From Elusimicrobiota bacterium (GTDB taxonomy: Bacteria > Elusimicrobiota > Elusimicrobia > UBA1565 > UBA9628): a DNA stretch of 64,000 bases. The notes under the pieces were generated by a model. The model did not search any database and had not been told where the DNA came from. It worked only from the letters and a program-made list of their open reading frames with translations. This document shows, piece by piece, positions 576 through 26,458 of the stretch. The DNA is taken from contig JACQWX010000126.1 of the NCBI GenBank assembly GCA_016209035.1, forward strand, positions 16,288 to 80,287, given 5' to 3'. Every line of letters starts with the position of its first letter. Position 1 is the stretch's first letter. Position numbers and translations under genes: made by a program.

Positions 576-3500
576 GTGTGGACATCTGTTTCACCCGCGA
601 CCATGCTGACCGGCTTCTTGAAGTGGCCCCCTGCCGCCCACGTCTTTCCTGATGGCGCAGGGGACGCTCGGCCTCCGGCCTGGACCGCGCCCCTGCTCGC
701 CTGCCTACTGGCTGCCGCCATGCCCGCCTTCGCTGCCGGCCCCGGCATCTCCGAGCCGCAGGTCCAGCAGTGCAACGACACCTTCGTCTCCGGGTCGTCC
801 ACGCGCAAGGCCTCGCCCCAGATCAAGGTCCCCATCCAGGACCCCACGGGCTTGAGGGTCGGCATCACCAGCACCCCCTACCGGTCGGCCGCCGGCTTTG
901 GGATGTGGCGTTTCAACACATCCTATACCAAGGCCCTCGAGAACAATTGTCTCGAGCAGGGTAACAAGAGAATCCGTTCGTGGGTCTATCGCTACGACGA
1001 TCCCGAGACGGCGGAACCCGTGATCGTGGGCCGGTGCGCCTACAGCGCGAGCACCCCCACAGCCGGATGCGCAGCCGACCTCAACACCATGGTTCTCGAC
1101 GCGACCGTCACCCAGTTCCCAATCAGAACCCCCTATCCATGGGTTTCCTGTCCGAGCAGCACCCAGACCATCGCCAATCATCCCGCCACCTATTCCTTCA
1201 ACCCCACTACCAGGACCGTGGACTCGGGGTGCTTGCCCGAGGCGACTTGCGGCTCGGCCAAGAATTGCCGATACTGGACCTGGACCTACGAGGATGCTTT
1301 CTCGAACATCACGGCCGGCCGCTGCACCTACAGCGCCAGCTCTACGACTCCCGAATGCGGGGCAGGCATCGGCAGCATGAGCCTCAGCGCGACGCTGCCT
1401 TGGCCCATCATCCAGCCCGAGTTGTTCTCCATCGGAGCATGTCCGGCGAGCACGGCCACGCTGCCCAGCGGGAATCAGCCCACCACCATCCCCCTGGGCC
1501 GATTCGACACGGGCCTGTTCAGAGACAGCGTGCACGCCCCCGTCGTGGAGAGCACCCAGGCCCTCACGATCGGCATCTACTACACCATGAGCGCCTGGGT
1601 CAGGACCTCGGCCGGGGGCTTGCAGAGGATATTCTCCCACCAGGATGGCACCAAGTACTGGGGATTCGGCCTCAACGGCGGAGCCCTTCGGCGTTTCGAC
1701 TCGCGCGAGGACGCCGGGAACCAGGACAACTCGCTGGGCTCGGGCTTGAACGACAATCAGTGGCACCATGTGGCCGTCGTGCGCAGGGACGGGGTGGAAT
1801 GGGAATTCTACAAGGACGGGCAGTCTCTAGGCACAACACCGGCCAGGACCGCTGCCGCCTTCTCGACAGGCTTCTCCAACCCCGCCTACGTCGGGAGCTA
1901 CCTCGGCTCATCGGAGTTCTTCAACGGCATGATCGACGACGTGCGCCTCTGGAGATACTCCATGACCGACGATGAGATGGCTCTCGACTACAACGCGACC
2001 GTCCACCGCTTCTCGATCAACGGGGGGAGCTCCTTCTCCTACGTCTTCCGCGATCCGCCCTCCAACGCCTACAATCCCCCGGCTTCCAACGGCACCACGG
2101 TCACCGTCTACTACCAGCCCGCGGTCCAGTCCGACATCACGACCGACCACAAGTACGTCTTCATGGCCCAGGACCGAACAGGAGAGTACACCGTCCAGGC
2201 CCCGTACACCGTGTACGTGGACAAGACCCCTCCGTCGAAGCCCGTGCTCTCCGGCGCCCCGCAATCCACGAACGAGATTCTCTGGACCTGGCCGACCCCC
2301 GCTTCGTTCTGCGGCCCTCCGGAGTACGCGGCCTTCTACACCCTGATCAACCCCGGCAGCGGCGCCACCATCATGAGCGTCCTGGACCCGACCCTGCAAA
2401 TCCTTGAGAACTTCGGAGGCGAGCCCCCCAACCAGCTCCACGGCCGGGTCATCTCGGCCACGGACATCTACGGCACCAGTCCTCTCTCCGACTGCACGAC
2501 CGCCTACACCAAGGCCGCCCAGCCCACGGCCTTGGCCGCGACCTCCATCTCGACCGGGTCGTTCGTCCTGCAGTGGAACAACCAGAACAACCCGAACTAC
2601 ACCCGCTACGAGCTCCAGTACAGCACGGTGGACGGGTTCGCCAGCGGCGCCGTGACGCTGGCCGCCATCAGCGACGACTTCAACGGCAGCCAGAAGGGGG
2701 TCTCCGGACTCCAGAACGGCACGACTTATTACGCCCGCGTCCGAGCCAAGAACGGCAGGCAAACCGACTCCTACGGCACCGACCTGACCGCCTACGCCAC
2801 CGCCGATTTCACCACCCTGCCCGCGGCCCCGGTCCTGACCGGCGCCGCTCTGTCCACCGGGTCCGTCCGCTGGGATTGGACCTCCGTGACGGGCGCCTTC
2901 GGCTACAAGCTCTACAGCTCGACGAACGGCCTGATGGTCGACACGCCCGCGCTCTCCTACTCCTCTTCGACGCTCAGCACCAACACGGCCTACGGCGCCT
3001 CGGTGGAGGCCTACGACCGTTACGGCACGGCCGGGCCGCGCTCGCCCACAGTCTACATCTTCACCCTGGCCACCAGCCCGGTCAACGCCTCCATCACCGC
3101 GGTCAGCACCAACGAGATCACCGTGTCCTGGGACGCCAACGGAAACGGCCCGCAGACCTACTACGAGGTCGTCATCGCGACGAACTCCGCCTTCGCCGCC
3201 GCGCTGAGCACCCAAGGCGTCACTGGCACCAGCGCGACCATCAAGGACCTTTTCCCGAAGACGACCTACTACTTTCGGGTCAGGGCCGTCAGCGGGGGGG
3301 GGGTCGCGACCCCCTTCATCCCGGAGACGCCGCTCAAGGCCGTGACCTACCCGAACCCCTACGTGAGCGTCTCGGACCCCCTGACCTCGCCCTACGTGCT
3401 CAAGGACGGCCTGGTGGGGTTGTGGCACATGGACGAGAGCTCGAACACTTCGGCCGCGGATTCCTCGTACACGAACAACGTCGGGACGCTCACCTGCATG

Positions 3501-4829
3501 GGGCCCGGGTGCACCTCCACTCCTACCTTCACGACCGGGCCGCCGGGCCTTGGGCCGGCCTTCGCTTTCCCGGGGGTCTCCAGCTCCATGGTGATCATGG
3601 CGGACCGCGGCGAATATCACTTCAGCGGCGACCTCTCGGTCAGCGCCTGGGTGAAGCCCTCCAAGACATCGCAGGCCAACGGCACGGCCATCGCGGCCAA
3701 GGGCCTCTTCAACTCCGAGGACTTCTGCCTGGACCTCACGAGCGACACGTACCGCTTCATGTTCAAGGCTACCTGGACCGTGCTCTCGACCATGACGGCG
3801 AGGCTCGGGACCTGGGACCATGTCATGGGGGTCTACTCCGACATGGGCGGCACCCTCAAGATCTACGTGAACGGCATCCAGTCCGGCCCGGCGACGGCCG
3901 CGGCCGGCAGGGCTTGGAGCGCCGAGCCCTTGAGCGTCGGGAGCCGGAGGAACGCCTCGGGGATCTACGCCCTCTCGTTCTCGGGCGCGATCGACGAGGT
4001 GCGCGTCTTCGCCAGGGCGCTCGGGGACGCCGAGGTCCTCGCCGAGTACGAGGCGAGCAAGCCCTTCGTCTACTCCGGAGCCACGACCGCCGACCGGGTT
4101 TCCGTCGAGCTCCCGCCCAACGCATTCACCTCGGGGGCTGCCGTCCTCTTTATCTCCCCCGATCCGGTCAGCCAGCCGGTGCGGCCCGGGGTCAACTTCA
4201 TTTCGGCGGGTCTGACCGTGATGCCCACCGCGCAGCGCTTCATCGACGGCACCCTCGTCGAGATCGTCCCCGTCATCGACGGCACTCCTTTCTCCGGGAC
4301 CCTGGGATCCGCGGCCACCGTCTACATCTCCTACACGGACAAGGACAACGACGGCGTCCTTGACGGCAGCAACCCGCCGATCCACGCCTCGACCCTGAGG
4401 ACCTTCGTCTTCGAGCCCAGCGTCATGCGCTGGGACGAACTCCCCAGCTCCATCGACTACGCCAACCGGCGGGTGGCGGCCCTCACCCGCCACTTCTCGG
4501 TCTTCGCGCTCTTCGGCGCCCAGGTCTACGGCAACAGCCTGCGGGAGGTCCGGGTCTATCCGGTCCCCTGGCAGATCGGCTCCGGAGGCCGGTTCGACGC
4601 GGAGGTCCTGGTCTTCGACCGGCTGCCGACCGACGGCCTGATCCGCATCTACAACCTCGCGGCGGAGAAGATCGTGGAGTTGGGCTTCGGGCCGTCCGAC
4701 CAGGGCAGGGTCGTGTGGAACGGCAACAACTACGTCGGGCAGCCCGTCGCAAGCGGCGTCTATCTCGCGTACGTCAAGTCGTCGACGGACGGGGCGCAGC
4801 GCATCCTCAAGTTCGTGGTGGAACGGTGA
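576..4829 (+). CDS. giant secreted surface protein (1417 aa): N-terminal Cys-rich repeats, two LamG/ConA-like (Laminin_G_3) domains, at least four fibronectin type III domains, and a T9SS-type C-terminal sorting domain; alternative start at Met codon near 718
   Basis: signal-peptide-like APLLACLLAAAMPAFA-AGP; the conserved Trp/Tyr-spaced FN3 beta-sandwich pattern recurs through the central part of the protein (roughly 2200-3350); LamG motifs (NQWHHVAVVR...DDVRLWRYSMTDDEM; LSVSAWVKPS...IDEVRVFARAL); C-terminus VRVYPVPWQIG...IRIYNLAAEKIVELGF...VASGVYLAYVKSSTDGAQRILKFVV resembles the Por-secretion CTD / FlgD-Ig-like sorting domain. Confidence 0.85.
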   Translation: MWTSVSPATMLTGFLKWPPAAHVFPDGAGDARPPAWTAPLLACLLAAAMPAFAAGPGISEPQVQQCNDTFVSGSSTRKASPQIKVPIQDPTGLRVGITSTPYRSAAGFGMWRFNTSYTKALENNCLEQGNKRIRSWVYRYDDPETAEPVIVGRCAYSASTPTAGCAADLNTMVLDATVTQFPIRTPYPWVSCPSSTQTIANHPATYSFNPTTRTVDSGCLPEATCGSAKNCRYWTWTYEDAFSNITAGRCTYSASSTTPECGAGIGSMSLSATLPWPIIQPELFSIGACPASTATLPSGNQPTTIPLGRFDTGLFRDSVHAPVVESTQALTIGIYYTMSAWVRTSAGGLQRIFSHQDGTKYWGFGLNGGALRRFDSREDAGNQDNSLGSGLNDNQWHHVAVVRRDGVEWEFYKDGQSLGTTPARTAAAFSTGFSNPAYVGSYLGSSEFFNGMIDDVRLWRYSMTDDEMALDYNATVHRFSINGGSSFSYVFRDPPSNAYNPPASNGTTVTVYYQPAVQSDITTDHKYVFMAQDRTGEYTVQAPYTVYVDKTPPSKPVLSGAPQSTNEILWTWPTPASFCGPPEYAAFYTLINPGSGATIMSVLDPTLQILENFGGEPPNQLHGRVISATDIYGTSPLSDCTTAYTKAAQPTALAATSISTGSFVLQWNNQNNPNYTRYELQYSTVDGFASGAVTLAAISDDFNGSQKGVSGLQNGTTYYARVRAKNGRQTDSYGTDLTAYATADFTTLPAAPVLTGAALSTGSVRWDWTSVTGAFGYKLYSSTNGLMVDTPALSYSSSTLSTNTAYGASVEAYDRYGTAGPRSPTVYIFTLATSPVNASITAVSTNEITVSWDANGNGPQTYYEVVIATNSAFAAALSTQGVTGTSATIKDLFPKTTYYFRVRAVSGGGVATPFIPETPLKAVTYPNPYVSVSDPLTSPYVLKDGLVGLWHMDESSNTSAADSSYTNNVGTLTCMGPGCTSTPTFTTGPPGLGPAFAFPGVSSSMVIMADRGEYHFSGDLSVSAWVKPSKTSQANGTAIAAKGLFNSEDFCLDLTSDTYRFMFKATWTVLSTMTARLGTWDHVMGVYSDMGGTLKIYVNGIQSGPATAAAGRAWSAEPLSVGSRRNASGIYALSFSGAIDEVRVFARALGDAEVLAEYEASKPFVYSGATTADRVSVELPPNAFTSGAAVLFISPDPVSQPVRPGVNFISAGLTVMPTAQRFIDGTLVEIVPVIDGTPFSGTLGSAATVYISYTDKDNDGVLDGSNPPIHASTLRTFVFEPSVMRWDELPSSIDYANRRVAALTRHFSVFALFGAQVYGNSLREVRVYPVPWQIGSGGRFDAEVLVFDRLPTDGLIRIYNLAAEKIVELGFGPSDQGRVVWNGNNYVGQPVASGVYLAYVKSSTDGAQRILKFVVER
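631..682 (-). repeat. GC-rich palindromic element, family A copy 1 (inverted orientation), in-frame in the 5' end of the giant-protein gene (encodes ..HVFPDGAGDARPPAW..)
   Basis: cctgccgcccacgtctttcctgatggcgcaggggacgctcggcctccggcctg is about 90% identical to the reverse complement of 9362-9410 and is related to 16046-16095 and 16211-16266; stem CCTGC(C)GCC / GGCGCAGG. Confidence 0.7.
3294..3303 (+). repeat. G10 homopolymer tract inside the giant-protein CDS (codons for SGGGV)
   Basis: agcggggggggggtcgcg read directly from the sequence; mononucleotide runs of 9 or more are slippage-prone. Confidence 0.9.
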
Positions 4830-4832
4830 ACG

Positions 4833-4927: not shown

Positions 4928-5923
4928 ATGGGACGTGTCTGCGTTCCCGTTTTCTTAGGTCTCCTTCTTGCCGTTTCGCTGTGGGCTCCGCCCACAGCGA
5001 GGGCATCTTTCAAGCGCCGGGACACCGGCTCCAACGCCGCTCAGTTCCTCAAGCTCGGGGCGGACGCCCGCGCGGCTGGCATGGGCCAGGCCGTCCGGTC
5101 CCTGGCCGAGGACGCGACCTCCGTCTACTGGAACCCGGCGGGACTCTCGGGCTTGAGGCTGCGGCACGCGACCTTCTCCCACGGAGCCCTCTACCAGGGC
5201 ATCTTCTACGATTTCCTCGCCTATGCCCAGCCCATCGAGTCGATCCTCGGGCGCAAGGAGCCGCGGCAGATCCGCGAGAGCCAGCTCGGAAGCCTGGGCG
5301 TCGCCTTGTTCTACATGAACGCGGGCTCCCTGCAGGAGACCGACAACACCGGGACCGCGACCGGCGGCAGCTTCATGCCCCAGGAGTTCGCCGGCGCGGT
5401 GGCCTGGGGCGGACGGCTCTCCTCGAACCTGGACGCCGGCATCGGCGTCAAGTTCATCCACTCGAAGCTCTACGAAAGCGCCCAGACCGCGGCGGGCGAC
5501 GTCGGAGCCAGGCTGCGCTTGAGGATCGCGCGCATGCCTCTGACCCTGTCGGTCGGGGCACACAACTTCGGGGGCAGCCTGAGGTACGGGCGGCAAAGCC
5601 AGGACCTCCCCTTCTTCGTGAGCGCCGGGGCCGGCCTGCGCGTAACCAAGGGCCTCATCCTGACCGGCGACCTCGTCGCGCCGCGGGACAACCGGCTCTA
5701 CGCCGCGGCGGGACTCGAGTTCCGGCAGGCCCTCACCTCCAAGGCGGGCTTCTCCCTGCGGGCCGGCTACAACGGGATGAACTACGACAGCGACCTCATG
5801 GGCCTCTCCGCGCTGGGGCTGGGAGCCGGGGTGCGCTTCCATCGGGTGGACGTGGACTACGCCTGGACGCCGTTCGGCATACTCACCACCGGCCACCGTT
5901 TCTCCCTCGCCTACCGATTCTGA
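4928..5923 (+). CDS. PorV/PorQ-family (FadL-like) outer-membrane beta-barrel protein (331 aa)
   Basis: signal peptide MGRVCVPVFLGLLLAVSLWAPPTARA; N-terminal family motif NAAQFLKLGADARAAGMGQAVRSLAEDATSVYWNPAGLSG (G.ARa.gMGgA..a.adDasA.ywNPAGL shared by PorV/PorQ/UPF0164/FadL-like barrels); C-terminal aromatic residue (..SLAYRF); immediately downstream of a CTD-bearing cargo. Confidence 0.75.
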   Translation: MGRVCVPVFLGLLLAVSLWAPPTARASFKRRDTGSNAAQFLKLGADARAAGMGQAVRSLAEDATSVYWNPAGLSGLRLRHATFSHGALYQGIFYDFLAYAQPIESILGRKEPRQIRESQLGSLGVALFYMNAGSLQETDNTGTATGGSFMPQEFAGAVAWGGRLSSNLDAGIGVKFIHSKLYESAQTAAGDVGARLRLRIARMPLTLSVGAHNFGGSLRYGRQSQDLPFFVSAGAGLRVTKGLILTGDLVAPRDNRLYAAAGLEFRQALTSKAGFSLRAGYNGMNYDSDLMGLSALGLGAGVRFHRVDVDYAWTPFGILTTGHRFSLAYRF

Positions 5924-7707: not shown

Positions 7708-7708
7708 G

Positions 7709-16626: not shown

Positions 16627-19600
16627 ATGGCAGCCAGACTCCGGCCCCGCTCCCTCATCACGACCCTAGGATTGGCGGCCCCGCTTTTGGCCGCCTTCGC
16701 CCACCAAGCCTTCGCTCAGACATTATTCACCCCCCGGCGCTCCCACACCCAGACCCTCATGGCCGACGGCAACATCCTGGCCGTGGGCGGCATCAGCGAC
16801 GAGACCGCGCCCACCTACCTCGGTTCAGGCGGCACCGGGGTCCAGAGGCTCAACGAGGGCAGGGGCCTCATCGAGAACCTCACGGCCATGTCCATCAACC
16901 GGGCGTCCCACACCGCGACCCTGCTGCCGGACGGCAAGGTCCTGGTGGTGGGCGGCATCAACGCGGGCGGGACCATCGCCACTTTCAACGTCTTCAACCC
17001 CAGGACCAACACCTGGGACACCGCCAACGAGGACGACGGCTCCCACGACCTCCCCAGCGGCGGACGCTACAACCACACGGCCACGGTGCTCAAGGACGGC
17101 AGGGTGCTGGTCTGCGGAGGGCAAAACGGCGGCGCGGCGCTCGGCTCCTGCGACGTGTTCACGCCCGACTACGACGAATCCTCGGCCGACAACGAGTCGG
17201 ACTGGGCGGCGGGGCCGTCGCTGCTGAGCGGCCGCGCCAACCACACCGCGACCATGCTGTTCAACGGCGAGGTGTTCGTCACCGGCGGCTGGAACCCCGC
17301 CGTGACCCCGAACTACACTCCCCTCTCGGAGCGGTTCCGGCCGGACTGCAGCGCTCCGACCGGCTGCTGGACCCCGGCCCGTCCCTTGAACGAAGGACGG
17401 GCGTACCACTCCGCCACGGCTATGTCCGACGGGAAAGTGATCATCGCCGGAGGCAACAACGCCAAGAACTTCGAGGCCAACAGGGGCTTCCTCCAGACCG
17501 TCGAGGTCTACGACCCGGTGGCCGACGAGATGCTCATGGCGGCCAACATGCCGGCGAGGAAGACCGGCTTCGCCGCCATCCTCCATCCGAGGGGGTACCT
17601 CTTGATCCAAGGCGGCCTGGGGAACGTCACGACCACCTACGTGACCCCCACCCTGACGCTGATGCCGGGCAGCTTCATCACCGGCCCCGCGTGGAACGGG
17701 GTGGGCGGGGCCGGTTCCAACATGGACCTCGGGGTCACGTACTCCAGCTCGGCCATCTCCGGCGGCGCCCTCAGCGCCCCCTTCAGGATCAAGCTCGACG
17801 CCGAGGTCACCGGCGTCATCCGGCAAGGCGAGATCTATTTCTCCACGCCTTCCATCATGTTCAACGGAGGCTATGCGTACCTGAATGAAGGAATAGGGGA
17901 CGAGGGCCTGGGAACGGCTTCCGGCCTGAGGGCGAGCCTCAACGGCATGGAGGTCTACTGTGACCCGACCGAGGACACCTGCGGCTGGGTCTCGACCGAT
18001 CAGCTCTTCCTCGCGGGCATCGCCGGCAGGTACGGGTTCCTAAGGCTCTCCGCCCAGATCGGCGGCTCGGCGTCCGACCCCAACGCCTGCGTCGACTTCA
18101 GCGATACCGAGGACGACAACGACGGAAGGATCATCCTGGGCGACGTCTACCCGATCCGGTCCAACAGCGCCGAGAACCGCTGCACCGCCCCCGTCGTGGA
18201 CGAGAACAGCTGGCGGGGCAACATCATCGTCCAGGGCCTGCCCGGCAGCACCGTCGGCGGGTCGATATCCAGCGCCACCCTCATGGTCCTCGAGGCCCAG
18301 ATGACGGGCGAAGAGGCCGGCGCCGAACCGGCCATCACGTACACCATCAACATCTCCTCCATGTTCACCAACGTCCCGGCCGGAATACCCATCATCCAGG
18401 ACACGAGCAGCGATCTCCCGAGCGGCCAGTTCACGTTCGCCGCGAACTTCAGGAACATGGCGGGCACCGTAGAGACCTCGTCGGACCCCTACCCCAACCC
18501 CGGCATCCTCGGCCCCATCGATGTCCCGCTCACGCTCTCCATCTCCAGGAGCGTGCTCCGGTACATTGCGGACCGGGTGGACCTCAACGGGGATCTCCTC
18601 ACCGTGCAGCTTTCCACCGTCGTCATCCGCACCATGGTGTTCGGCGACGTGGAGATGTACTCCCCCAAGGACAACGAGTGGTCCAGGTGGCCCCTCGATA
18701 CGGGCCTGGCGGATTCGCGGTTCTTCCACAGCGCCTCCCTCACCCCGGGCGGAGCCGCCCGGTTCTGGGGCGGCGAGACCTGCGACTACGTGGGCTCCGC
18801 GACCTGCGCCTCCGACGAGGTCAACCCCCTCGGACGCTTGAGCCTCAACATCTACCAGGAGGATTGGACCGAGGGACCGGGGGCGATGACCCACGGCCGG
18901 GCCAACCACACCGCCACGCCTTTGCCCAACGGCAAGGTCCTCATCGCCGGCGGCACCAACGGACCAAGCGTGCTCAAATCCGCGGAGATCTACAACGTCC
19001 AGACCAGGTACTTCTCCCAGACCGGCGAGATGAACTACGCCCGCGACCTGCATTCGGCGTCGCTCCTGCCCAACGGCAAGGTCCTGGCGGCCGGAGGCTT
19101 CTCCACGGACTCCGTGTCCACGGGCGCCACCAACACCGCGGAGGTCTACTATCCCGACGAGGGGGTGTGGCGCGAGACCGGCTCCATGAACTGGCGCCGC
19201 GATTCCCACACGGCCGTGACCCTGCTGGACGGCAACATCCTCGTGTTCGGAGGCTACGACCGCGGCGCCTACCTCGACAGCGCGGAGATATACTATTCCA
19301 CGATCGGCGCCTGGCGCGCCATCCCGAGCCCGACCAATCAGGGCCTCGGGGCCTGCCCCGGCGGGGCTCATGCCAGGGCCAAGCATACCGCCACCCTGCT
19401 CAAGGACGGCCGCATCCTGTTCGCGGGCGGCATCAACGGCGCCAGCGGCGTCTTGAGCTCGGCGCTGCTGCTCAATCTCTTCAACCAGGACCTGGCCCTC
19501 GGCTGGAGCTGCGCCGCGCGAATTCAGAGCCTTCCCACCGATAACCCTCCCTCGGTGGTCTTCCCGGTCCACTCGCACTCGGCCATCCTCCTGCAGTCCG

Positions 19601-22600
19601 GCGAGGTCCTCCTGAGCTTCGGCAACGACGGCACGGGGCAGGCGGAGCTGCCGCCGCTCTCCTTGGTCTACGACCCCGCCGCGAACGCCTGGAGGTACGG
19701 CGTCGGCCTCCAGCAGAAGGGCGTCACCTTCAACCACACCGCGACCCTGCTGCCCAACGGGCGGGTCCTCATCGTCGGCGGCGCCCGCGGCTTCAATCAG
19801 ACGCAACGGAGCAACTTCCTTTATGACATGATCTCGGCCACCTACACGGCTACCGGGCGCCTGGTGAGGGCCAGGGCCTGGCACACAACCACGCTCACGG
19901 CCGGGCAGGAGATCGTGGCCGTCGGAGGCTTCAACCAGACCGACGGCTACCTCAAGTCCGCGGAGTACTATCCCATCGGCATCGCGGGGCCTTTCGACGA
20001 GGAAATGCCCGGCTACCCTCCCTCGATCCGCATCGCCACGATCACGGTCGTGAGCCCCTCGATCTCGCTGCCCGGGAACAACCTCATCGTGCGCGACAGG
20101 AACCTCACCCGCCTCACCGAGGCCTCCTCCGGCAAGACCGGCGGCTCCTCCCATTTCCACCCCAGGATGATCCTGCAGGCCGTGGACGCCAGCGGCGGGA
20201 CCGCGACCCAGGGCAACTCCGGCTTCCTCATCGACCTGACCACCAGGATATACCGCTCCATCGCGGGCTCCTGCCCGGCCTCGAACGACTACTGCAACCG
20301 CTGGAACAAGGGCGCGGGCGGCGACCCGAACATCTTCGGCTACTACGGCCAGGAGAAGGTGGACGCGAGCACCACCTCCCTCATCACCGCGCGCCTCCCG
20401 GAAGCCTCGACGGCCATCCCCAACGGCTGGTACCACCTGCGCGAGGCGGCCAACGCCGTCTACTCCGACAGCGTGCTGATCCGCATCGGCCCGCCGCTCC
20501 CGCCCGCCCCGACGCCCGCCACCGGCACGGTGATGGGCTCCACCTCCGTCTACTGGACCTGGCCGGACCTCGGGGGCTGGAACGTGGGCTACAACGTCTA
20601 CTACGCCACCTCCCTGGTCTTCATCACCACCCGAGCCGTGGCGCTCGCCGGCCAGAGCGCCTTCTTCATCCAGACGGGCTTGACGCCGAACGTCACCGCA
20701 GCCATCATGGTCCAGGGGTTCTCCCAGACGGGCGACAGCTCCGGGACCGTGTCGGCCAACGCCTACACCCTGGCCGTGCCTCCGGCCAACATCCGCTTCA
20801 CCACGATCCAGGCGAACTCCGTGAACATGGAGTGGCAGTCCAACGGGAACAGCGACGGGACGGTCTACGAGGCGTCCATCGCCTTGGACCCGGCCTTCAC
20901 GATCGGGCTTCGGATCCCGACGAACGATTACGCGCCCTTCACCAGCACCTACACCACGATCACCGGCCTGATCCCCCTGACCACCTACTACGTGCGCATG
21001 CGCGCGCAGAACAACGAGAAGCCGACCGGGATATGGACGGACTTCACCTACACCACCTTCACGACCAGGTGGAGCTGGATCCCCTTGTCGGGGCAGGAAT
21101 GTTCCGCGAACACCGGGGACGTCTGCATCACCTGGCAGTGGAGGTCGACCGCGACCGTCGTGAGCTACAACATCTACAACGCCACCGTCCCCTCCGCCTC
21201 CCCCGGCTACAAGATCAACCCCGCCCCCCTCACCGACGGCGACGGGGACGGGAACGTCACCTTCTCGGACACGCCGCTTGACCCCAACACCCCGCGGGTC
21301 GTCTTCGTGACGGGGATCAGGGCGTCCAGCGAGGAATGGCCGCTCACCCAGCCGACGACCGTCTACACATGGGCGGCCCAGCCCGGCCAGCAGTATGACC
21401 AAGGCTCCGGCCAGTACATGCCCTATCTGGTCATCAGGGACTCGCAATCTGTCAACGTCCAATACAACACCAACCGCAACCCCACGGGATCGCCTCCCCT
21501 GGCCACCTACTACAGGCTCTACTATGCCACGGGAGCCGTCGACGGCATCTGGTCCTGGCTGTCCACCGGCGACTACCAGACCTCCGGCCCCGACAGCTTC
21601 AAGGAGGAGCGGATCGAGGACCTGCTCCCGGGCGAGAACTATTTCGTCGAGATCGAGCCCGTCAACAATCAAGGGACCCCGAGCAGCAGGACCGCCCTGG
21701 GCAGCATCTACACCATGGCCAATCAGCCGACCTCATTGAGGCTGCTGTCCGTGACCCCGAACAGCATCACGATCGACTGGGATCCGAACGGAAACACCTC
21801 GTCGACCACCTACGAGGTGAGCTACACGACCGGCGAGCCGCCCGGGGTCGGGCTGACCGTCTACGTGTCCCGGAGCTTCGCGGAGTGGAACAGCTCGCTC
21901 TCCGCCACGGTCTCGGGCCTCGACACGGGCAGGTGGTACTATTTCCGGGTGCGATCCCAGAACTTCCAAGGATTGGTGAACACCGCCTACTCCACCGTAG
22001 TGAGCACCATCACGCCCACGGGCTCCGCAGGCGCCTCCTCGGGCCAACTCGGAGGGACGCTCCAGGCGGCGGTGGACTCGAGCTTCTCCGGGACGATCGG
22101 CAGCCCCGCCCAGCGCACCGTGAGCCTCTGGGCCCCGGCCGGGGCCTTCACCACGAACGTGGAGGTGGTCATCTCCACCCTCAACGTCTCGGGCGCGGGC
22201 TCCCTGTGCGGCAGCGGGCTCAACGTCGGCATCTCCATCGCCCCGGTCCCGTACGTCCAGCCCGCCAAGCCGCTGATGCTGACCTTCTCCTATTCCACGA
22301 GCCCCGTCAACGAGCTCGGCGCCGCCGACCCGGACAAGGTCGTGCTCATGCGCTACGACCCGGCGAAGAACAAATGCGTGCCCATGCCGACCGTCGTCGA
22401 CACCGTGAGCCTCAGGATCACGGCCCTGCTCAACCACTTCTCGTTCTTCCAGCTCGCGGTGGTCACGCCTCCCACGAACCCGCACGCGGCCAAGGCCTTC
22501 CCGAACCCGTTCTACAAGTCGCGGGACGGCTACGTGACCTTCAGCGAGATGCCGCCTTACTCGCGCATCCGGATCTACACGATGCAGGGAGACCTCATCC

Positions 22601-22743
22601 TCGACCGCCTCGCCACCGGGGCGGGGATACTCACCTGGGGCGGCCTCAACATGTGGGGCCGCATGGTCGCCAGCGGCATGTACCTCGCCGTCATCCAGCA
22701 CGGCGACGACAAGAAGATCATCAAGATGGTGGTCCTCAGATGA
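16627..22743 (+). CDS. giant secreted surface protein (2038 aa): two Kelch/galactose-oxidase-like beta-propellers, multiple fibronectin type III domains, Ig-like region, T9SS-type C-terminal sorting domain
   Basis: signal peptide ...LAAPLLAAFAHQAFAQ; Kelch blades HTATLLPDGKVLVVGG, HTATVLKDGRVLVCGG, HTATPLPNGKVLIAGG and HTATLLPNGRVLIVGG are a subset of roughly a dozen; FN3 pattern (Trp/Tyr-spaced beta-sandwich repeats across the C-terminal third); C-terminus FPNPFYKSRDGYVTFSEMPPYSRIRIYTMQGDLILDRL...GRMVASGMYLAVIQHGDDKKIIKMVVLR. Confidence 0.85.
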   Translation: MAARLRPRSLITTLGLAAPLLAAFAHQAFAQTLFTPRRSHTQTLMADGNILAVGGISDETAPTYLGSGGTGVQRLNEGRGLIENLTAMSINRASHTATLLPDGKVLVVGGINAGGTIATFNVFNPRTNTWDTANEDDGSHDLPSGGRYNHTATVLKDGRVLVCGGQNGGAALGSCDVFTPDYDESSADNESDWAAGPSLLSGRANHTATMLFNGEVFVTGGWNPAVTPNYTPLSERFRPDCSAPTGCWTPARPLNEGRAYHSATAMSDGKVIIAGGNNAKNFEANRGFLQTVEVYDPVADEMLMAANMPARKTGFAAILHPRGYLLIQGGLGNVTTTYVTPTLTLMPGSFITGPAWNGVGGAGSNMDLGVTYSSSAISGGALSAPFRIKLDAEVTGVIRQGEIYFSTPSIMFNGGYAYLNEGIGDEGLGTASGLRASLNGMEVYCDPTEDTCGWVSTDQLFLAGIAGRYGFLRLSAQIGGSASDPNACVDFSDTEDDNDGRIILGDVYPIRSNSAENRCTAPVVDENSWRGNIIVQGLPGSTVGGSISSATLMVLEAQMTGEEAGAEPAITYTINISSMFTNVPAGIPIIQDTSSDLPSGQFTFAANFRNMAGTVETSSDPYPNPGILGPIDVPLTLSISRSVLRYIADRVDLNGDLLTVQLSTVVIRTMVFGDVEMYSPKDNEWSRWPLDTGLADSRFFHSASLTPGGAARFWGGETCDYVGSATCASDEVNPLGRLSLNIYQEDWTEGPGAMTHGRANHTATPLPNGKVLIAGGTNGPSVLKSAEIYNVQTRYFSQTGEMNYARDLHSASLLPNGKVLAAGGFSTDSVSTGATNTAEVYYPDEGVWRETGSMNWRRDSHTAVTLLDGNILVFGGYDRGAYLDSAEIYYSTIGAWRAIPSPTNQGLGACPGGAHARAKHTATLLKDGRILFAGGINGASGVLSSALLLNLFNQDLALGWSCAARIQSLPTDNPPSVVFPVHSHSAILLQSGEVLLSFGNDGTGQAELPPLSLVYDPAANAWRYGVGLQQKGVTFNHTATLLPNGRVLIVGGARGFNQTQRSNFLYDMISATYTATGRLVRARAWHTTTLTAGQEIVAVGGFNQTDGYLKSAEYYPIGIAGPFDEEMPGYPPSIRIATITVVSPSISLPGNNLIVRDRNLTRLTEASSGKTGGSSHFHPRMILQAVDASGGTATQGNSGFLIDLTTRIYRSIAGSCPASNDYCNRWNKGAGGDPNIFGYYGQEKVDASTTSLITARLPEASTAIPNGWYHLREAANAVYSDSVLIRIGPPLPPAPTPATGTVMGSTSVYWTWPDLGGWNVGYNVYYATSLVFITTRAVALAGQSAFFIQTGLTPNVTAAIMVQGFSQTGDSSGTVSANAYTLAVPPANIRFTTIQANSVNMEWQSNGNSDGTVYEASIALDPAFTIGLRIPTNDYAPFTSTYTTITGLIPLTTYYVRMRAQNNEKPTGIWTDFTYTTFTTRWSWIPLSGQECSANTGDVCITWQWRSTATVVSYNIYNATVPSASPGYKINPAPLTDGDGDGNVTFSDTPLDPNTPRVVFVTGIRASSEEWPLTQPTTVYTWAAQPGQQYDQGSGQYMPYLVIRDSQSVNVQYNTNRNPTGSPPLATYYRLYYATGAVDGIWSWLSTGDYQTSGPDSFKEERIEDLLPGENYFVEIEPVNNQGTPSSRTALGSIYTMANQPTSLRLLSVTPNSITIDWDPNGNTSSTTYEVSYTTGEPPGVGLTVYVSRSFAEWNSSLSATVSGLDTGRWYYFRVRSQNFQGLVNTAYSTVVSTITPTGSAGASSGQLGGTLQAAVDSSFSGTIGSPAQRTVSLWAPAGAFTTNVEVVISTLNVSGAGSLCGSGLNVGISIAPVPYVQPAKPLMLTFSYSTSPVNELGAADPDKVVLMRYDPAKNKCVPMPTVVDTVSLRITALLNHFSFFQLAVVTPPTNPHAAKAFPNPFYKSRDGYVTFSEMPPYSRIRIYTMQGDLILDRLATGAGILTWGGLNMWGRMVASGMYLAVIQHGDDKKIIKMVVLR

Positions 22744-22853
22744 CCGAGCACCTCGGAGCCCCGCAGGGGCTCCTCGTCCCGCGCAACGGGTCTGCGAGGA
22801 AATGGCCTGCCCTTCCAATTATTGGAGGGGCAGGGCTCGGCAGAGCGGAGACC

Positions 22854-23840
22854 ATGAAGGCCGGGATTTTGCTCCTATGCGTCCTCCTGGCGCGTCTGCC
22901 CGCCGCCGCCGCGGACTTCTCGCGAGAGACCGTCGGCACCGGAGGCTCGGAGTTCCTGCTCTTCGACCTGGGCCCGCGGGCCATAGCCATGGGCGGGGCC
23001 TACAGCGGCTTGAGCGACGACGCCTATTCCCTCTACTGGAACCCCGCCGGCCTGGCCCGGATCCCGAGGCTATCCGCCTCGTACCAGAGCAGCCTGCACG
23101 TGGCCGACATGACCTACCACGCCGGGGTCTTCGGGTACCGCATGAAGGAATCCGTCGTCCTGGGCGCCGGCTGGCGCTATCTGAACATGGGGGAGATCGA
23201 GAACACCGACCTCGCGGGCGACACGGTCGGCAAGTTCACTCCGAGGCACTACGTGGTCGAGGCGGGCTGGGGCCAGTCCATCTACGACCTCTCGGACAAC
23301 GACATGGAGCTCAACGTGGGCGCCGTGGTGCGGTGGATCCACTCGGTCATGTTCGTCCAGGCGGACGGCTTCGGGGGGGACATCGGGATCCAGGCGCGCT
23401 TCTATGCCGGCCCGTTCCTCTACGATTTCGGCGGGTCCCTGCAGAACATCGGGGTCGGCCAGAGCTACGTGGACGTCAGGGACTCGCTCCCATTCCGCGC
23501 GCGCCTCGGGGGGACCATCTATCCCGCCCGGGGCCTCGCCCTGTGCCTCGAAGCCGTGACGCCCGTCAACAACTATCCTTTCGCGGCCCTCGGAGTCGAG
23601 TATGCCCGTCACTTCGACAAGAACCTCAGCGCCGCCGCGCGCGCCGGCTTCAACAGCCGCACGCTCGCCAGTCTCGGCCCCATGTCGGCCATGAACCTCG
23701 GGATGGGCGTCAAGTTCTCCGACATCTCCGTGGATTACTCCTTCAACTACATGGGCGTGCTGGGCTCGCAGGGCACGCACCGCCTGGCCTTCAGCTACAA
23801 CCTGCCCTCGAAATCCTCGAGGAGATACCGCGAACGATGA
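22854..23840 (+). CDS. PorV/PorQ-family (FadL-like) outer-membrane beta-barrel protein (328 aa), paralogue of 4928-5923
   Basis: signal peptide MKAGILLLCVLLARLPAAAA; motif GTGGSEFLLFDLGPRAIAMGGAYSGLSDDAYSLYWNPAGLAR; ends ...LAFSYNL; 110 nt downstream of a CTD-bearing giant protein. Confidence 0.75.
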   Translation: MKAGILLLCVLLARLPAAAADFSRETVGTGGSEFLLFDLGPRAIAMGGAYSGLSDDAYSLYWNPAGLARIPRLSASYQSSLHVADMTYHAGVFGYRMKESVVLGAGWRYLNMGEIENTDLAGDTVGKFTPRHYVVEAGWGQSIYDLSDNDMELNVGAVVRWIHSVMFVQADGFGGDIGIQARFYAGPFLYDFGGSLQNIGVGQSYVDVRDSLPFRARLGGTIYPARGLALCLEAVTPVNNYPFAALGVEYARHFDKNLSAAARAGFNSRTLASLGPMSAMNLGMGVKFSDISVDYSFNYMGVLGSQGTHRLAFSYNLPSKSSRRYRER

Positions 23841-25384
23841 GCCCCGACGACCCCTCCGCGCCCCCGCCGCCCCCTCCGGGGGCTCCCATCCCGCCGGCGC
23901 CGCCTGCGCCCGAGCTCGTCCGGCCCGCGCCCACCCCTGCGCAGCAGGTCCCGCGCACCCCGATGATGGATTTCATGGAGCGAAGGCTCGCCGCCCTCGA
24001 GGCCGATCTCGCCCGGGAACGCGAGCGCGCCTCCTCGGCGGAGAGCGTGCTCAAGGCCCAGGCCTCCATGCGCTCCGAGGTCGAGGCCCAGCTCAAAGCC
24101 CTGACGGACCAGCTCCGGCGGGAGAAGTCCGACCGGGACCATGAGGAGTCCTCCTCCCAGGCCAAGGGCCGGATCTCTGCGCTCGAGGAGCGGCTCGACT
24201 CGCTGCACCGCACCTGGGCCGACCTGCTCAAGGAGACGCTCCTGGGCAAGGAGGTCGTGGCCAAGGTTTGGCCGGCCGAGGTCGTGGGCGAGATGAAGGA
24301 GTGGCGCCAAGCCCTCTCAGCCCTCCCCAGGCTCGTCGACGCGGTCGCGGACCTCGAATCGCGCCAGCGGGGCCAGGACCTCCAGGTCAAGGATGAGCTG
24401 CGCGCCCTCGTCGGGGACCTTTCCGCCGCGTTGCGGGAACGCTTCGCCGACGCGGAACATAAGCGCGAGATCGACCTGGCCAAGGCTGACGACCGCCTCG
24501 GGGCCGTGGCCCGTGAACGGCTCGCCCTGCGGGAAGCCTTCGACGAGGCCGGCCACGCCCTGCGCTCCGACCTCCTCAAGGAGCGCCTCGCCCAGGAAGC
24601 GGCCTTCAACGAGGCCCTCTCCGGCATCGCGGCCCGCATCGACGACCTCGGCCGCCGCCACGCCCAATCCGACCGGGAGACCTCGGAGCTCAAGGAGGTC
24701 CTCGGCCAGGCCCTCTCCAGGGCCGAGCCCAAGGCCAAGGACGCGGTGATGGCGGAACTCGAGCACGAGAACGCCGACCTGCGCGGGATGCTCTCCGAGC
24801 GCATCGAGGCCTTGAGGCGCTACACCGAAGAGAGGAAGCGCATCGAGGCCAGCATGGGAGAGAGCCTCCTGGCCTTGAACCGCGAGCTCTCGCAAGAGAA
24901 GGCGAGAGGCCTCGAAGCCGGCCGGCGGATGATGGAGAAGGACCTGGAGATCACTTCGCTCAAGGACAGGCTCGACATGGCCTCCAAGACCGTCGAGGAG
25001 AGGGAGACGCGCTTCGCGTGTCTCGCGGTTGAGCGCGACGAGATCGCCCGCGCGATGGCGGCCGAGGCCGGGAGGCTCCGGGACGCCATTGAAGCCCGCA
25101 GGGTCTCCGACGAGACCTGGGCCAAGAAGGTCGCCGAGATGGAGAAGAAGCTCGACGAGGCCGCCGATATCTCCCAGCGGGAGGCGGCGTCGCGCCGGGA
25201 CCTTGCCAGCCAGGCGGCCGTCCTCTCCTCCCACGCCGCCAAAGCCCTCCAGGAGAGGGACGCCGCCGTCCAGGGCAGCGCCTCCTGGCAGGAAGAGCGC
25301 GCCCGGCTCCTGGAAGCCCTCAGGAAGAAGGACGACCTCATCTCCATGCTCTCCGCGTCGTTCCAGAACATCTTGAAGAAGTAG
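23837..25384 (+). CDS. proline-rich N-terminus plus long coiled-coil protein (515 aa), translationally coupled (ATGA overlap) to the PorV/PorQ-like gene
   Basis: MSPDDPSAPPPPPPGAPIPPAPPAPELV... then about 450 aa of heptad-like E/R/A/L-rich sequence; no TM; start overlaps the upstream stop. Confidence 0.6.
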   Translation: MSPDDPSAPPPPPPGAPIPPAPPAPELVRPAPTPAQQVPRTPMMDFMERRLAALEADLARERERASSAESVLKAQASMRSEVEAQLKALTDQLRREKSDRDHEESSSQAKGRISALEERLDSLHRTWADLLKETLLGKEVVAKVWPAEVVGEMKEWRQALSALPRLVDAVADLESRQRGQDLQVKDELRALVGDLSAALRERFADAEHKREIDLAKADDRLGAVARERLALREAFDEAGHALRSDLLKERLAQEAAFNEALSGIAARIDDLGRRHAQSDRETSELKEVLGQALSRAEPKAKDAVMAELEHENADLRGMLSERIEALRRYTEERKRIEASMGESLLALNRELSQEKARGLEAGRRMMEKDLEITSLKDRLDMASKTVEERETRFACLAVERDEIARAMAAEAGRLRDAIEARRVSDETWAKKVAEMEKKLDEAADISQREAASRRDLASQAAVLSSHAAKALQERDAAVQGSASWQEERARLLEALRKKDDLISMLSASFQNILKK

Positions 25385-25416
25385 CGGTCCGTCCTTCACG
25401 GCCTTCCGTCAAGGCC

Positions 25417-25503
25417 TTACAGCCCATAGCCGCATGGACCCGCCTCGTAGACCACGGCCAGCCGCGGATGCTCGGCCTTCAGCCGACGGAACAGCTTGTC
25501 CAC
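25417..25503 (-). pseudogene. remnant of an IS110-family-like transposase N-terminus (fragment only, preceded by an in-frame stop)
   Basis: minus-strand translation VDKLFRRLKAEHPRLAVVYEAGPCGYGL* fits the IS110-family N-terminal pattern (..hydrophobic-x-[MV]-EA-x-G-x-x-[YH]..L); lies at the left edge of the low-G+C island. Confidence 0.3.
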
Positions 25504-25718
25504 CGCATCACACCCCACGGTTCAAAGGTCGGCGAGCCAGAAAATCGCACTACGGTGGGTAGGTGCCTAACATTCATGCGTTGGGCTGACTGGATGCTCT
25601 CACCAGGGGAAGCGAATACGGCCCCCGGACGGACGACAGAAAAGATACAATGAACGTATCCCCAAGCGATTCCGCCAAACAAATCGGGCAGCCGCTATAG
25701 ACCATTAAGGATGAGAAG

Positions 25719-26458
25719 ATGATATCAGCCAAGACATTGGCGGCAATAAGTTCCAAAACGATCGCCTACTGGAAGGCCGAAGTAAAAAAGCCCGAGATAG
25801 TCGGAATCGCCAAGGGCAAAGAAATCGGCCACAAACTCGCAGCAAGGGCAAAGAAATCGGCCACAAACTCGCAGACCTCGTCGATGAGAAAACGACGGCA
25901 CTGCTCACGGTGGAATTCCTCACGAAACACCAACGGGACTCGCAGGGCCAAAAGCGGTCACGCAGCATGGGCGATTTGTGGTTGCAGGACAGTGGTATTT
26001 ATCATCCGGTCAACGTCAAGACGGGCATCGTTGGCGCAGAAGGCCAGCCAAATCTGGTCTCGTTGAAAAAGGTTTTCAGCGCCATTATGGCGAGGCAGAT
26101 TGACTCCTACTATCTCTTGATTGTCAAAATGGACATTAGCGCCAAAGGAATTGCGCCATCCGTGTGCCTCATTGACATGCTTGACTGGCTAGACTACGTC
26201 ACTTTTGATTCTGGCCCCGGCCAGATGATGCTGAGAGCTGTCAAGTTCTTCGCCGAATTCGATCCGACGAAAGTCAAGACCCTCGACATCAAGAGCAAAG
26301 CGCAGAGACTCATGGAGTTGTACGAGGATGGCGAACGGAGACTCAAGGAGAACCGCGAGAGAGACCTTCAGCACTACCGACATGAGTTTCGTGATTTCCT
26401 CGCGGGCAAGAATTTCCGCGTCACGCCCGAAACTCAAAGGAGCCTCATCCTGCAATGA
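25719..26458 (+). pseudogene. type II restriction endonuclease candidate inactivated by a frameshifting 32-bp tandem duplication (intact length would be 235 aa)
   Basis: the N-terminal reading frame (MISAKTLAAISSKTIAYWKAEVKKPEIVGIAKGKEIGHKLA) continues seamlessly into ORF 25910-26458 (..DLVDEKTTALLTVEFLTKHQRDSQ...) once one 32-bp copy is removed; stop overlaps the start of the adjacent DNA methyltransferase (ATGA); low-G+C island. Confidence 0.55.
25811..25874 (+). repeat. perfect 32-bp tandem duplication (caagggcaaagaaatcggccacaaactcgcag x2)
   Basis: read directly; unit length not divisible by 3, so it frameshifts the restriction endonuclease (REase) gene. Confidence 0.95.

Follow-up and report, generated by a model that had tools for sequence, protein, structure and literature searches.

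A candidate surface-display operon of Elusimicrobiota that pairs a Kelch/FN3 protein bearing a PorZ-like C-terminal domain with a PorV/PorQ-family barrel

The window analyzed here is a 64-kb stretch of DNA, and its source contig belongs to a groundwater Elusimicrobia MAG. It holds two cassettes, in each of which a gene for a large cargo protein with a C-terminal domain (CTD) is followed by a gene for an outer membrane-type barrel; in cassette 2, a coiled-coil gene comes after the barrel gene and a gene for a membrane protein lies upstream of the cargo (Table 1). The cargo, barrel and coiled-coil genes of cassette 2 are all genuine. The gene calls in the public assembly of the same sequence are identical (2038, 328 and 515 aa), and GC3 across the three called frames is 0.91-0.93. 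What the original prediction had stated about the sequence, that is, the gene calls, motifs, ATGA overlap and neighbours, was borne out in full.

Table 1. Features of the two cassettes in the window, with the evidence for each
Feature	Position	Strand	Evidence
Cargo 1, 1417 aa, cassette 1	576..4829	+	Laminin_G_3 and fn3 (Pfam), PorZ-like CTD
Barrel 1, 331 aa, cassette 1	4928..5923	+	BLASTP vs barrel 2, PorV_fam 140.2 bits
CBM48-type single-pass membrane protein, 273 aa	15728..16549	+	Pfam, orthologue profile vs PDB 6RZN
Cargo 2, predicted surface protein, 2038 aa	16627..22743	+	GC3 0.93, Pfam Kelch and fn3
First Kelch beta-propeller region, about aa 70-340 (limits approximate)	16834..17646	+	Pfam
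Second Kelch beta-propeller region, about aa 740-1110 (limits approximate)	18844..19956	+	Pfam, NCBIfam
FN3-type repeat region, about aa 1290-1800 (limits approximate)	20494..22026	+	Pfam, alignment with cargo 1
T9SS type A CTD, nearest to PorZ CTD, last 110 aa and stop	22411..22743	+	TIGR04183, PorZ C-terminus profile, PDB 5M11
Spacer with strong hairpins, 110 nt, cargo to barrel	22744..22853	+	RNAfold -63.3 kcal/mol
Barrel 2, PorV/PorQ family, FadL-fold, 328 aa	22854..23840	+	NCBIfam PorV/PorQ family profile; GC3 0.91
Coiled-coil protein, 515 aa	23837..25384	+	GC3 0.92, 69 homologues, AlphaFold model

Cargo 2 begins with MAARLRPRSLITTLGLAAPLLAAFAHQAFA, a Sec-type signal peptide of about residues 1-31 as judged from sequence alone. 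It had been described as a 2038-aa protein with two Kelch propellers and FN3 domains, and Pfam agreed, with Kelch matches in two separate regions and an fn3 match further on. The first Kelch region was recognized by Beta-prop_ATRN-LZTR1 (aa 90-330), Kelch_KLHDC2 (94-300) and Kelch_2 (94-134), and the second by Kelch_4 (757-802), Kelch_6 (761-806) and Kelch_1 (861-902), along with a partial GlxA match (740-824). More Kelch-like repeats could be discerned by reading the translation of the second region. Within the FN3 region, fn3 matched aa 1700-1782 and Pur_ac_phosph_N aa 1389-1472, and this region aligned repeatedly to the FN3 region of cargo 1. Orthologues of cargo 2 measure 1707-2011 aa, and their architecture is unchanged.

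The end of cargo 2 contains the strings that had been quoted for its CTD (FPNPF...IRIYTMQGDLI...VASGMYLAVI...KMVVLR). When the CTD alone was compared with TIGR04183, it scored 26.6 bits, above the cut-off of 23, while the full-length protein gave 21.5 bits, just below it; against the PorZ C-terminus, the CTD alone reached E=1.4e-12. Among the 26 orthologous CTDs, the PorZ C-terminus was matched by all and TIGR04183 by 25, and Pfam PF18962 matched 19 at E<=0.01, the window copy not among these. The profile built from the CTDs matched residues 656-758 of PDB 5M11 (E=2e-10), up to the final residue, and the CTD in 8GLK_D (E=0.008). As expected for a CTD, the match takes up the very end of a protein that starts with what reads as a Sec signal peptide. 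These comparisons indicate that the cargo 2 CTD is homologous to the solved T9SS CTD beta-sandwich. A type B CTD (PF13585/TIGR04131) was considered and rejected, since CHU_C matched only 14 of the 26, each weakly, and the window copy is not one of these.

Between the cargo and barrel genes lies a spacer that is lineage-specific, as the two genes abut or overlap in most relatives; an Rfam scan of the spacer returned no family. Barrel 2 contains the motif that had been reported for it (GTGGSEFLLFDLGPRAIAMGGA...LYWNPAGLA) and has a FadL-fold barrel preceded by a signal peptide and a plug region at the N-terminus, a layout in keeping with its assignment to the FadL-type barrels. Both barrels passed the PorV/PorQ family model NF033709 (cut-off 90), with 122.7 bits for barrel 2 and 140.2 bits for barrel 1. 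Neither can be called PorV or PorQ proper, because their scores are far under the equivalog cut-offs of NF033710 and NF033711: on the PorQ model (cut-off 220), barrel 2 scored 68.1 and barrel 1 82.2, and on the PorV model (cut-off 250), 62.6 and 61.7, respectively. The PorP/SprF family was not among the matches of either barrel in the family scans. The dN/dS of barrel 2 is 0.03-0.23. At its C-terminus, barrel 2 carries a conserved extra tail, NLPSKSSRRYRER, whose codons double as the ribosome-binding site of the coiled-coil gene, and such a tail is found only in barrels coupled to the coiled-coil gene.

The two barrels aligned end to end with 30% identity (BLASTP, E=5e-38), and each matched solved PorV at only about E=6e-6. 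Each barrel is thus nearer to the other one than to PorV or FadL, and barrel 1 is an old paralogue of barrel 2. The CTDs of cargo 1 and cargo 2 are likewise alignable (30% identity over 140 aa, E=5e-12), and cargo 1 matched the PorZ C-terminus at E=6e-5. Barrel 1 has the canonical end ...AYRF, with an aromatic final residue in 65 of its 66 orthologues, and the next gene is an NAD-dependent epimerase (5951-6958), so cassette 1 has no coiled-coil gene, as the original prediction had it. The cassette 1 pair, with its different cargo and no coiled coil, is conserved in other genomes, where cargo 1 orthologues of 1279-1641 aa stand directly 5' of barrel-1 orthologues. Further cargos precede such barrels elsewhere, namely a PQQ-propeller cargo with Por_Secre_tail in Elusimicrobiales, and a Big_5/FlgD_ig/Por_Secre_tail cargo followed by a TPR-PorV barrel on a Margulisiibacteriota contig. 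The proposal of a reusable barrel and CTD module with exchangeable cargo therefore gained support: both barrels pass the family cut-off, both CTDs are PorZ-like type A, the pairs are conserved as pairs, and other cargos occupy the same place in the two groups just named. The barrels could instead be FadL-type uptake channels for hydrophobic compounds, unrelated to the protein encoded upstream. We find this extremely improbable, given that PorV is the best match both by structure and by sequence, that the PorV/PorQ family model is passed, and that in each of the four independent cassette types examined, a barrel of this kind comes directly after a protein bearing a CTD.

The ATG of the coiled-coil gene sits in an ATGA overlap with the TGA of barrel 2, and the high-GC3 frame switches at this point (23840). 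In the list of open reading frames, the coiled-coil frame is open from 22802 (860 aa), and GC3 marks only 23837-25384 as coding. The AlphaFold model of the product (pLDDT 78.5) has a Pro-rich head and then helices only: the head, aa 1-41, is disordered and carries the conserved motifs PPAPPxPEL and TPMMDF, and three long helices follow (42-140, 153-293 and 302-514). The protein has neither a signal peptide nor a membrane helix. The possibility of a low-complexity GC artefact can be set aside, as the open reading frame is conserved and its dN/dS of about 0.07-0.18 indicates purifying selection. There are 69 homologues, and all those bearing a source name are from Elusimicrobia; an alignment of homologues has 27 invariant columns, and the length of the protein varies from 309 to 577 aa with the N-terminal module conserved. 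The family is tiny, with 158 matches at E<=0.001 in 1.84 billion representative proteins, and it was found only in records that are labelled Elusimicrobiota or unlabelled. No SMC or ATPase family was matched in Pfam or NCBIfam, so an SMC identity was rejected, and source labels such as 'chromosome segregation ATPase' on the homologues are coiled-coil artefacts. Collectively, the gene is real, co-translated and lineage-specific.

The 273-aa protein encoded upstream of cargo 2 has a single membrane helix (LWMSLLVVDSLLIAVFGSYLGAV) after a short N-terminal tail; a linker rich in Pro and Ala then leads to a domain of the CBM48/AMPK-beta type at the C-terminus. Its single sequence gave 23.1 bits with AMPK1_CBM and 21.8 bits with CBM_48, both under the cut-off. 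The orthologues matched AMPK1_CBM in 21 of 21 cases and CBM_48 in 20 of 21, and their profile matched the CBM48 domain of PDB 6RZN (E=3e-7), which bears out the suggestion of a CBM48-like membrane protein directly upstream. A TonB/TolA-type periplasm-spanning identity was rejected, since a protein of that kind would end in a TonB_C/TolA domain and this one, although it has the membrane helix and the Pro/Ala-rich spacer, ends in CBM48. The TonB match (E=0.24) fell within the Pro-rich part, and that to GltG, 16 bits against a cut-off of 650, in the linker (residues 63-171). Wherever a related locus extends far enough, this gene immediately precedes that of the cargo, and we regard its product as a conserved neighbour and only a putative member of the system.

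The cassette 2 neighbourhood is conserved across Elusimicrobiota. In 58 of 61 related loci, the genes run from HAD hydrolase through CBM48 membrane protein, cargo and barrel to coiled coil. The CTD-bearing frame, the barrel gene and the coiled-coil gene were consecutive in 42/44 species loci and 16/17 core metagenome loci, mostly overlapping or separated by a few nucleotides. The PGI, HAD hydrolase and ADH genes, which are unrelated housekeeping neighbours, are equally syntenic with cassette 2. Since the entire neighbourhood, these genes included, is collinear across genomes, synteny overstates functional linkage and by itself is no proof of a functional tie. In three separate lineages, the cargo and barrel genes are absent at this locus, and the coiled-coil gene still lies beside the CBM48 gene.

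These data bear on what the coiled-coil protein does. It had been proposed as a 1:1 third component, perhaps at the periplasmic face of the barrel, and the coupling on which this was founded is real: barrel and coiled-coil genes are adjacent in 58 of the 61 loci, the distance from barrel stop to coiled-coil start is -4 to +8 nt in most of them, and the extra tail occurs only on barrels coupled in this way, so that a stoichiometric subunit might dock at the conserved RRYRER tail. However, none of 25 aligned homologues has a signal peptide, a lipobox or a membrane helix, and the protein is hence predicted to be cytoplasmic; the gene persists without cargo and barrel in the three lineages mentioned above; two distant relatives of its N-terminal module are encoded downstream of fliG-motA-motB; and the tail codons also serve the next gene as ribosome-binding site. 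The 4-nt overlap indicates co-expression and says nothing of stoichiometry. The proposal was thus an over-reading, and we give a third subunit on barrel 2 only a slim chance.

A different view is that the gene is functionally untied to the cargo and barrel, encoding a cytoplasmic scaffold or filament-type protein that shares a transcript in a collinear region. The missing export signal, its persistence without the pair, the equal synteny of the housekeeping genes, and a variable length around a conserved N-terminal module all agree with this. Even so, the start/stop overlap is retained across lineages in which the coiled-coil proteins are only 27-64% identical to that of the window, and unrelated genes usually lose such tight coupling, which makes this view possible but rather doubtful. 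Most probably the gene encodes a rod that stays in the cytoplasm and has a conserved module for interactions at its N-terminus, and this rod may work together with the CBM48 membrane protein instead of the barrel.

For the cassette as a whole, we see a slightly better than even chance that it is a vertically inherited Elusimicrobiota operon building a cell-surface display unit. The cargo would be exported by Sec, keep its CTD, and be anchored at the surface through binding of this domain at the extracellular face of its own barrel. A CTD-holding function of the barrel is suggested because PorQ holds PorZ, PorV holds PorU, and PorP/SprF hold type B CTD proteins. Cognate CTD-barrel pairs have precedent: PorQ holds PorZ, whose CTD is retained (PMC10202324). 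Weighing against the reading are the sub-threshold TIGR04183 score of the full-length cargo, the low equivalog scores of the barrels, the collinearity of the entire region and the three lineages in which the locus has neither cargo nor barrel. Alternatively, the cargos could be ordinary T9SS substrates, with a full T9SS encoded elsewhere in the genome and the barrels as extra PorV/PorQ paralogues shuttling or anchoring them after export by SprA. The CTD and barrel families are both T9SS families and the portion of the genome examined was 64 kb, yet several lines of evidence make this unlikely: T9SS genes are reported absent outside the FCB group and CTD proteins restricted to Bacteroidota (PMC11285876, PMC10202324), no T9SS family was found among about 45 proteins scanned within the window, no T9SS component turned up in the genes flanking those related loci for which gene tables were read, and both barrels are far under the PorV and PorQ equivalog cut-offs.

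Pairs of a PorZ-type CTD protein and a PorV/PorQ-family barrel, their genes mostly abutting or overlapping, are conserved across Elusimicrobiota, with at least one similar pair in Margulisiibacteriota, whereas T9SS reviews confine the system and its CTD cargo to Bacteroidota and FCB relatives. If these genomes truly are without SprA and PorKLMN, proteins of 1400-2000 aa must cross the outer membrane folded and without T9SS, and the holding of a CTD by a barrel would be a free-standing surface-display module that T9SS may have recruited. For the structural biology of T9SS, the pair is also a simpler system of two genes in which to study how a CTD is recognized. The family of the coiled-coil protein, in turn, is lineage-specific and has no known relatives; the genes around it hint at motor-linked machinery. 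In another lineage, the N-terminal module of the rod adjoins FliG-MotA-MotB motor genes. A bolder idea, to which we assign little probability, is that the products of the four co-directional genes, the CBM48 protein, Kelch/FN3 cargo, PorQ-like barrel and coiled coil, form one envelope-spanning, T9SS-independent apparatus, in which the single-pass membrane protein would connect a surface adhesin, held by the barrel, to a coiled-coil rod in the cytoplasm. Were this true, it would be a new kind of adhesion or surface-motility machine, and the CTD-barrel anchoring module would predate the T9SS translocon or be independent of it.

Among known systems, the T9SS attachment complex of Porphyromonas gingivalis, with its PorZ-PorQ and PorU-PorV pairs, is comparable in that the cargo 2 CTD is most like that of PorZ and both barrels fall in the PorV/PorQ family, where the PorQ model gives them slightly higher scores than the PorV model. 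PorZ consists of beta-propellers and then a CTD (5M11 structure), as cargo 2 has propellers and a CTD. The differences are that the cargo gene here lies next to the barrel gene and in most cases overlaps it, that cargo 2, a Kelch/FN3 protein of 2038 aa, resembles PorZ in the CTD and nowhere else, that the present barrels score far too low for the PorQ and PorV equivalogs, that the phylum is reported to be without T9SS, and that one of the barrels has a coiled-coil gene coupled to it. SprB-SprF of Flavobacterium johnsoniae and PG1035-PorP share the arrangement of a huge surface-protein gene followed by its own FadL-like barrel gene, and an SprF/PorP-type barrel has been proposed to anchor an uncleaved type B CTD at the surface (PMC10202324). 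However, the CTD here is type A-like (TIGR04183 in 25/26, CHU_C weaker and in 14/26) and the barrels match PorV/PorQ, so that only the gene arrangement is common to both. BamG-BamH of the Bacteroidota BAM complex differs in that BamH, a lipoprotein, is held at the N-terminus and is not a CTD protein, sequence identity is 17%, and no BAM genes lie near cassette 2. Coiled-coil scaffolds of the crescentin/FilP type, and AglZ of the Myxococcus gliding machinery, have a disordered head and a long helical rod with short linkers. Although it has no detectable sequence or fold relation to them, the coiled-coil protein of cassette 2 resembles these scaffolds in its disordered head, its helical rod broken by linkers and the absence of an enzymatic domain.

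Since long open reading frames arise by chance in DNA this GC-rich (the window has ~67% G+C), the frames in cassette 2, which consists of cargo 2, barrel 2 and a coiled-coil gene, were chosen by the GC content at third codon positions (GC3). The values of the three genes are listed in the table below, and GC3 was just 0.48-0.52 in the upstream extensions of the barrel 2 and coiled-coil frames. The high-GC3 frame switched at ~23840, and the ATG of the coiled-coil gene was found within an ATGA shared with the barrel 2 stop, confirming the proposed start of this gene inside the barrel stop. The identical three genes are called in a public assembly of the same sequence, and at 100% identity the coiled-coil protein matched one annotated as hypothetical in an Elusimicrobia MAG (locus tags HY748_). 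The original observation on cassette 2 was confirmed.

Positions of the features discussed, in the window
Feature	Position	Value or remark
Cargo 1	576-4829	cassette 1
Cassette 1 spacer	4830-4927	hairpin -42.6 kcal/mol
Barrel 1	4928-5923	cassette 1
Epimerase	5951-6958	after barrel 1
tRNA-Gly (CCC)	7573-7646	Rfam
CBM48 protein	15728-16549	directly upstream of cargo 2
Cargo 2	16627-22743	GC3 0.93
Cassette 2 spacer	22744-22853	hairpin -63.3 kcal/mol
Barrel 2	22854-23840	GC3 0.91
Barrel 2 C-terminal tail	23802-23840	PxKxS-RRYRER
Coiled-coil gene	23837-25384	GC3 0.92
Low-GC insertion	25385-28421	between coiled-coil gene and ADH
Tandem duplication, ~30 nt	near 25850	in low-GC insertion
182-aa ORF	25910-26458	in low-GC insertion; no family match
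Eco57I/PglX-like N6-adenine DNA methyltransferase	26455-28164	in low-GC insertion
BatA-D/MoxR-type operon	37849-46019	downstream of cassette 2
tRNA	56211-56283	Rfam
tRNA	56356-56428	Rfam
tRNA	58527-58599	Rfam

In Pfam, cargo 2 matched Kelch families in two regions (~aa 70-340 and ~aa 740-1110) as well as fn3. When its last 110 aa were scanned alone, the C-terminal domain (CTD) scored 26.6 bits on TIGR04183, the model for type A CTDs of type IX secretion (T9SS), whose cut-off is 23, and it aligned with the C-terminal end of PorZ as modelled in NCBIfam (E=1.4e-12). Within a set of orthologous and paralogous CTDs, the PorZ C-terminus was matched by 26/26 and TIGR04183 by 25/26. The single cargo 2 CTD sequence gave no match in the PDB, and matches were obtained only with a profile of this CTD set: to residues 656-758 of the PorZ structure 5M11 (E=2e-10), reaching the final arginine, and to 8GLK_D, a CTD in complex with SprA and PorV (E=0.008).

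Barrel 2 scored 122.7 bits on the NCBIfam PorV/PorQ family model (cut-off 90) and fell far under the NCBIfam equivalog cut-offs for PorQ (68.1/220) and PorV (62.6/250); Flavobacterium PorV was its sole sequence match in the PDB. Alignment bore out the expected likeness between the two cassettes. Barrels 1 and 2 aligned end to end with 30% identity (E=5e-38), far more strongly than either barrel matched PorV, and the CTDs of cargos 1 and 2 shared 30% identity across 140 aa. Each barrel was ~50% identical to its own orthologues in other species, and the lower identity between the paralogues indicates that the barrel duplication predates the spread of these lineages. For close pairs in which dS was not saturated, the barrel dN/dS was 0.03-0.23.

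An extra C-terminal tail, NLP[AS]KxS[RK]RYRER, was found in 96/120 barrel 2 orthologues and in 0/66 barrel 1 orthologues, which end in the canonical ...YRF. This tail is basic, is placed after the usual last strand and would face the periplasm. The coiled-coil gene takes its ribosome-binding site from the last codons of the tail; however, a pure ribosome-binding-site effect was rejected as the cause of its conservation, because the amino acids stay constant despite synonymous codon changes.

Relatives share a conserved gene order: TAL/PGI, HAD hydrolase, CBM48 protein, Kelch/FN3 cargo, barrel, coiled coil and ADH. It was present in 6/6 related loci retrieved by exact protein sequence, in 42/44 species loci of a genome collection and in 16/17 core metagenome loci, where the counts refer to a barrel directly before a coiled-coil gene, and loci clipped by contig ends stop short of the outer genes. 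The synteny of barrel and coiled-coil genes extends to these relatives, with a distance from barrel stop to coiled-coil start of -4 to +8 nt in most loci. In the one complete genome (CP096137.1, loci L001/L024, 5400-10000), frameshifts, from assembly errors or pseudogenes, break both the cargo and the barrel into several ORFs, and the coiled-coil gene is intact.

The possibility that the coiled-coil ORF is a GC-rich or low-complexity artefact was refuted by GC3, by conserved motifs and by a dN/dS of 0.07-0.18 (close pairs, unsaturated dS). We found 69 homologues with 34-64% identity, nearly all at 92-100% length coverage, and all those with a named source were from Elusimicrobia. When 1.84 billion representative proteins were searched exhaustively with the profile, just 158 matched at E<=0.001, of which 56 reached E<=1e-30; judged by these searches, the family is small and lineage-specific. 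The protein had no family match in Pfam or NCBIfam, its profile gave chance coiled-coil matches only against the PDB, and its model found no fold match there with Foldseek. This model comprises a disordered Pro-rich head (aa 1-41) and helices at 42-140, 153-293 and 302-514. In one genome, a 309-aa version (56% identity) keeps only the head and the first helix, marking the N-terminal 26-139 module as the conserved core. This module, with its motif RGR[IV]EALExRLDxM, is common to more distant proteins, and two distant relatives of the module are encoded directly after fliG (M and C domains)-motA-motB (L060, 37-4220, and L073, 35-2602), the start of the L060 relative overlapping the motB stop. 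As coiled-coil similarity is error-prone, this motor-gene neighbourhood may be taken as a lead, not as proof.

The gene had been proposed to encode a third component acting with the barrel. Both the conserved coupling of barrel stop and coiled-coil start and the tail present on barrel 2 orthologues, without a counterpart on those of barrel 1, speak for such a partner. However, a signal peptide or membrane helix was absent in all 25 aligned coiled-coil homologues, and in three lineages the coiled-coil gene adjoins the CBM48 gene, directly after it, with cargo and barrel missing (L019, 9027-11506; L034, 7809-11398; L074, 6361-9455). When the coiled-coil proteins were placed in a neighbour-joining tree, these three did not group together, suggesting that the cargo-barrel pair was lost or relocated independently. 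The tight coupling stood; a role as periplasmic partner or subunit of the barrel appears unlikely. The coiled-coil gene is genuine, conserved and co-translated, and its product is most likely cytoplasmic.

The CBM48 assignment of the upstream single-pass membrane protein held at profile level. In this protein the N-terminal motif is conserved, a single membrane helix is present and the Pro/Ala-rich linker varies; its charge bias under the positive-inside rule gave no decision on orientation. The domain could lie on the periplasmic side, reaching to the wall or the barrel, or on the cytoplasmic side, where it might bind glycogen, in keeping with the neighbouring genes of sugar metabolism. A relationship to the gliding-motility protein GltG was rejected, as the match was of 16 bits, against a cut-off of 650, and lay in the Pro/Ala-rich linker. 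Directly before the CBM48 gene we observed TTGCGG-18-TAGAAT, at which a transcript could start. TAnAAT-like boxes were also seen 7-12 nt before the starts at 5951, 7571, 12937, 15728 and 32910, with no clear ribosome-binding site, which suggests leaderless or very short-leader mRNAs. In a promoter and terminator scan, counts were within ~1 standard deviation of the shuffled-sequence expectation.

Some features were particular to the window. In most loci the cargo ORF abuts or overlaps the barrel ORF; here, both cassettes carry spacers of ~100-110 nt with very stable hairpins between the two, unusual compared with relatives, with a common AT-rich end (CCTTGAATTGATTGGA and CCTTCCAATTATTGGA). Rfam detected no family in these spacers, and its only matches were four tRNAs. 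Because the mechanical ORF 7571-10009 begins within reach of the tRNA-Gly and overlaps it, the true start of the SpoIID/TPR protein must be farther downstream. The coiled-coil gene and ADH, adjacent in most relatives, are separated here by a low-GC stretch (53% G+C in the 26-28 kb bin, compared with ~67% elsewhere) that resembles an insertion carrying part of a restriction-modification or defence system. Farther downstream, the BatA-D/MoxR-type operon encodes a HEAT-repeat protein, DUF58, VWA proteins, a TPR protein and BatD; the close relative L002 has a similar set at the corresponding place (HEAT, MoxR-type AAA, DUF58, VWA), and the gene tables of three further relatives list HEAT or MoxR-type genes.

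Cassette 1, with its Laminin_G_3/fn3 cargo and barrel, is kept as a pair within its own syntenic setting. Barrel 1 is followed by an epimerase, and the coiled-coil gene was, as predicted, missing from cassette 1, both in the window and in two orthologous loci. Other pairs were found on an Elusimicrobiales contig, where a 499-aa barrel homologue comes after a PQQ-propeller protein that matches Por_Secre_tail weakly, and on a Margulisiibacteriota contig, where a PorV-family barrel fused to TPR comes after a 1693-aa protein with Big_5, FlgD_ig and Por_Secre_tail domains. Together with cassette 1, these pairs bore out the idea of a barrel-CTD module, which on present evidence is reusable. The Margulisiibacteriota set (L055, 2574-15230) also includes a small FlgD_ig protein, and immediately downstream lie genes for an AAA ATPase and a response regulator, followed in the list by PilM/PilN-like genes and a secretin; this neighbourhood may offer a clue to the way such cargos get across the outer membrane.

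According to two reports (PMC10202324, PMC11285876), only Bacteroidota or FCB phyla have CTD proteins and T9SS genes, and we found no relevant paper on T9SS/PorV or such cargo-barrel pairs in Elusimicrobia. Because of these reports, and since SprA, PorKLMN and PorU were all absent from the genes of the 64-kb window, we regard the pairs as putatively T9SS-independent. The profile matches and gene order support reading the cargo-barrel sets as putative PorZ/PorQ-like cognate anchoring pairs, conserved in a phylum outside the known T9SS range. Such pairs bear on how the T9SS sorting signal originated and would point to an undescribed route across the outer membrane. The closest arrangements on record are the holding of PorZ by PorQ and of PorU by PorV, together with type B CTD proteins that have adjacent PorP/SprF genes (PMC10202324).
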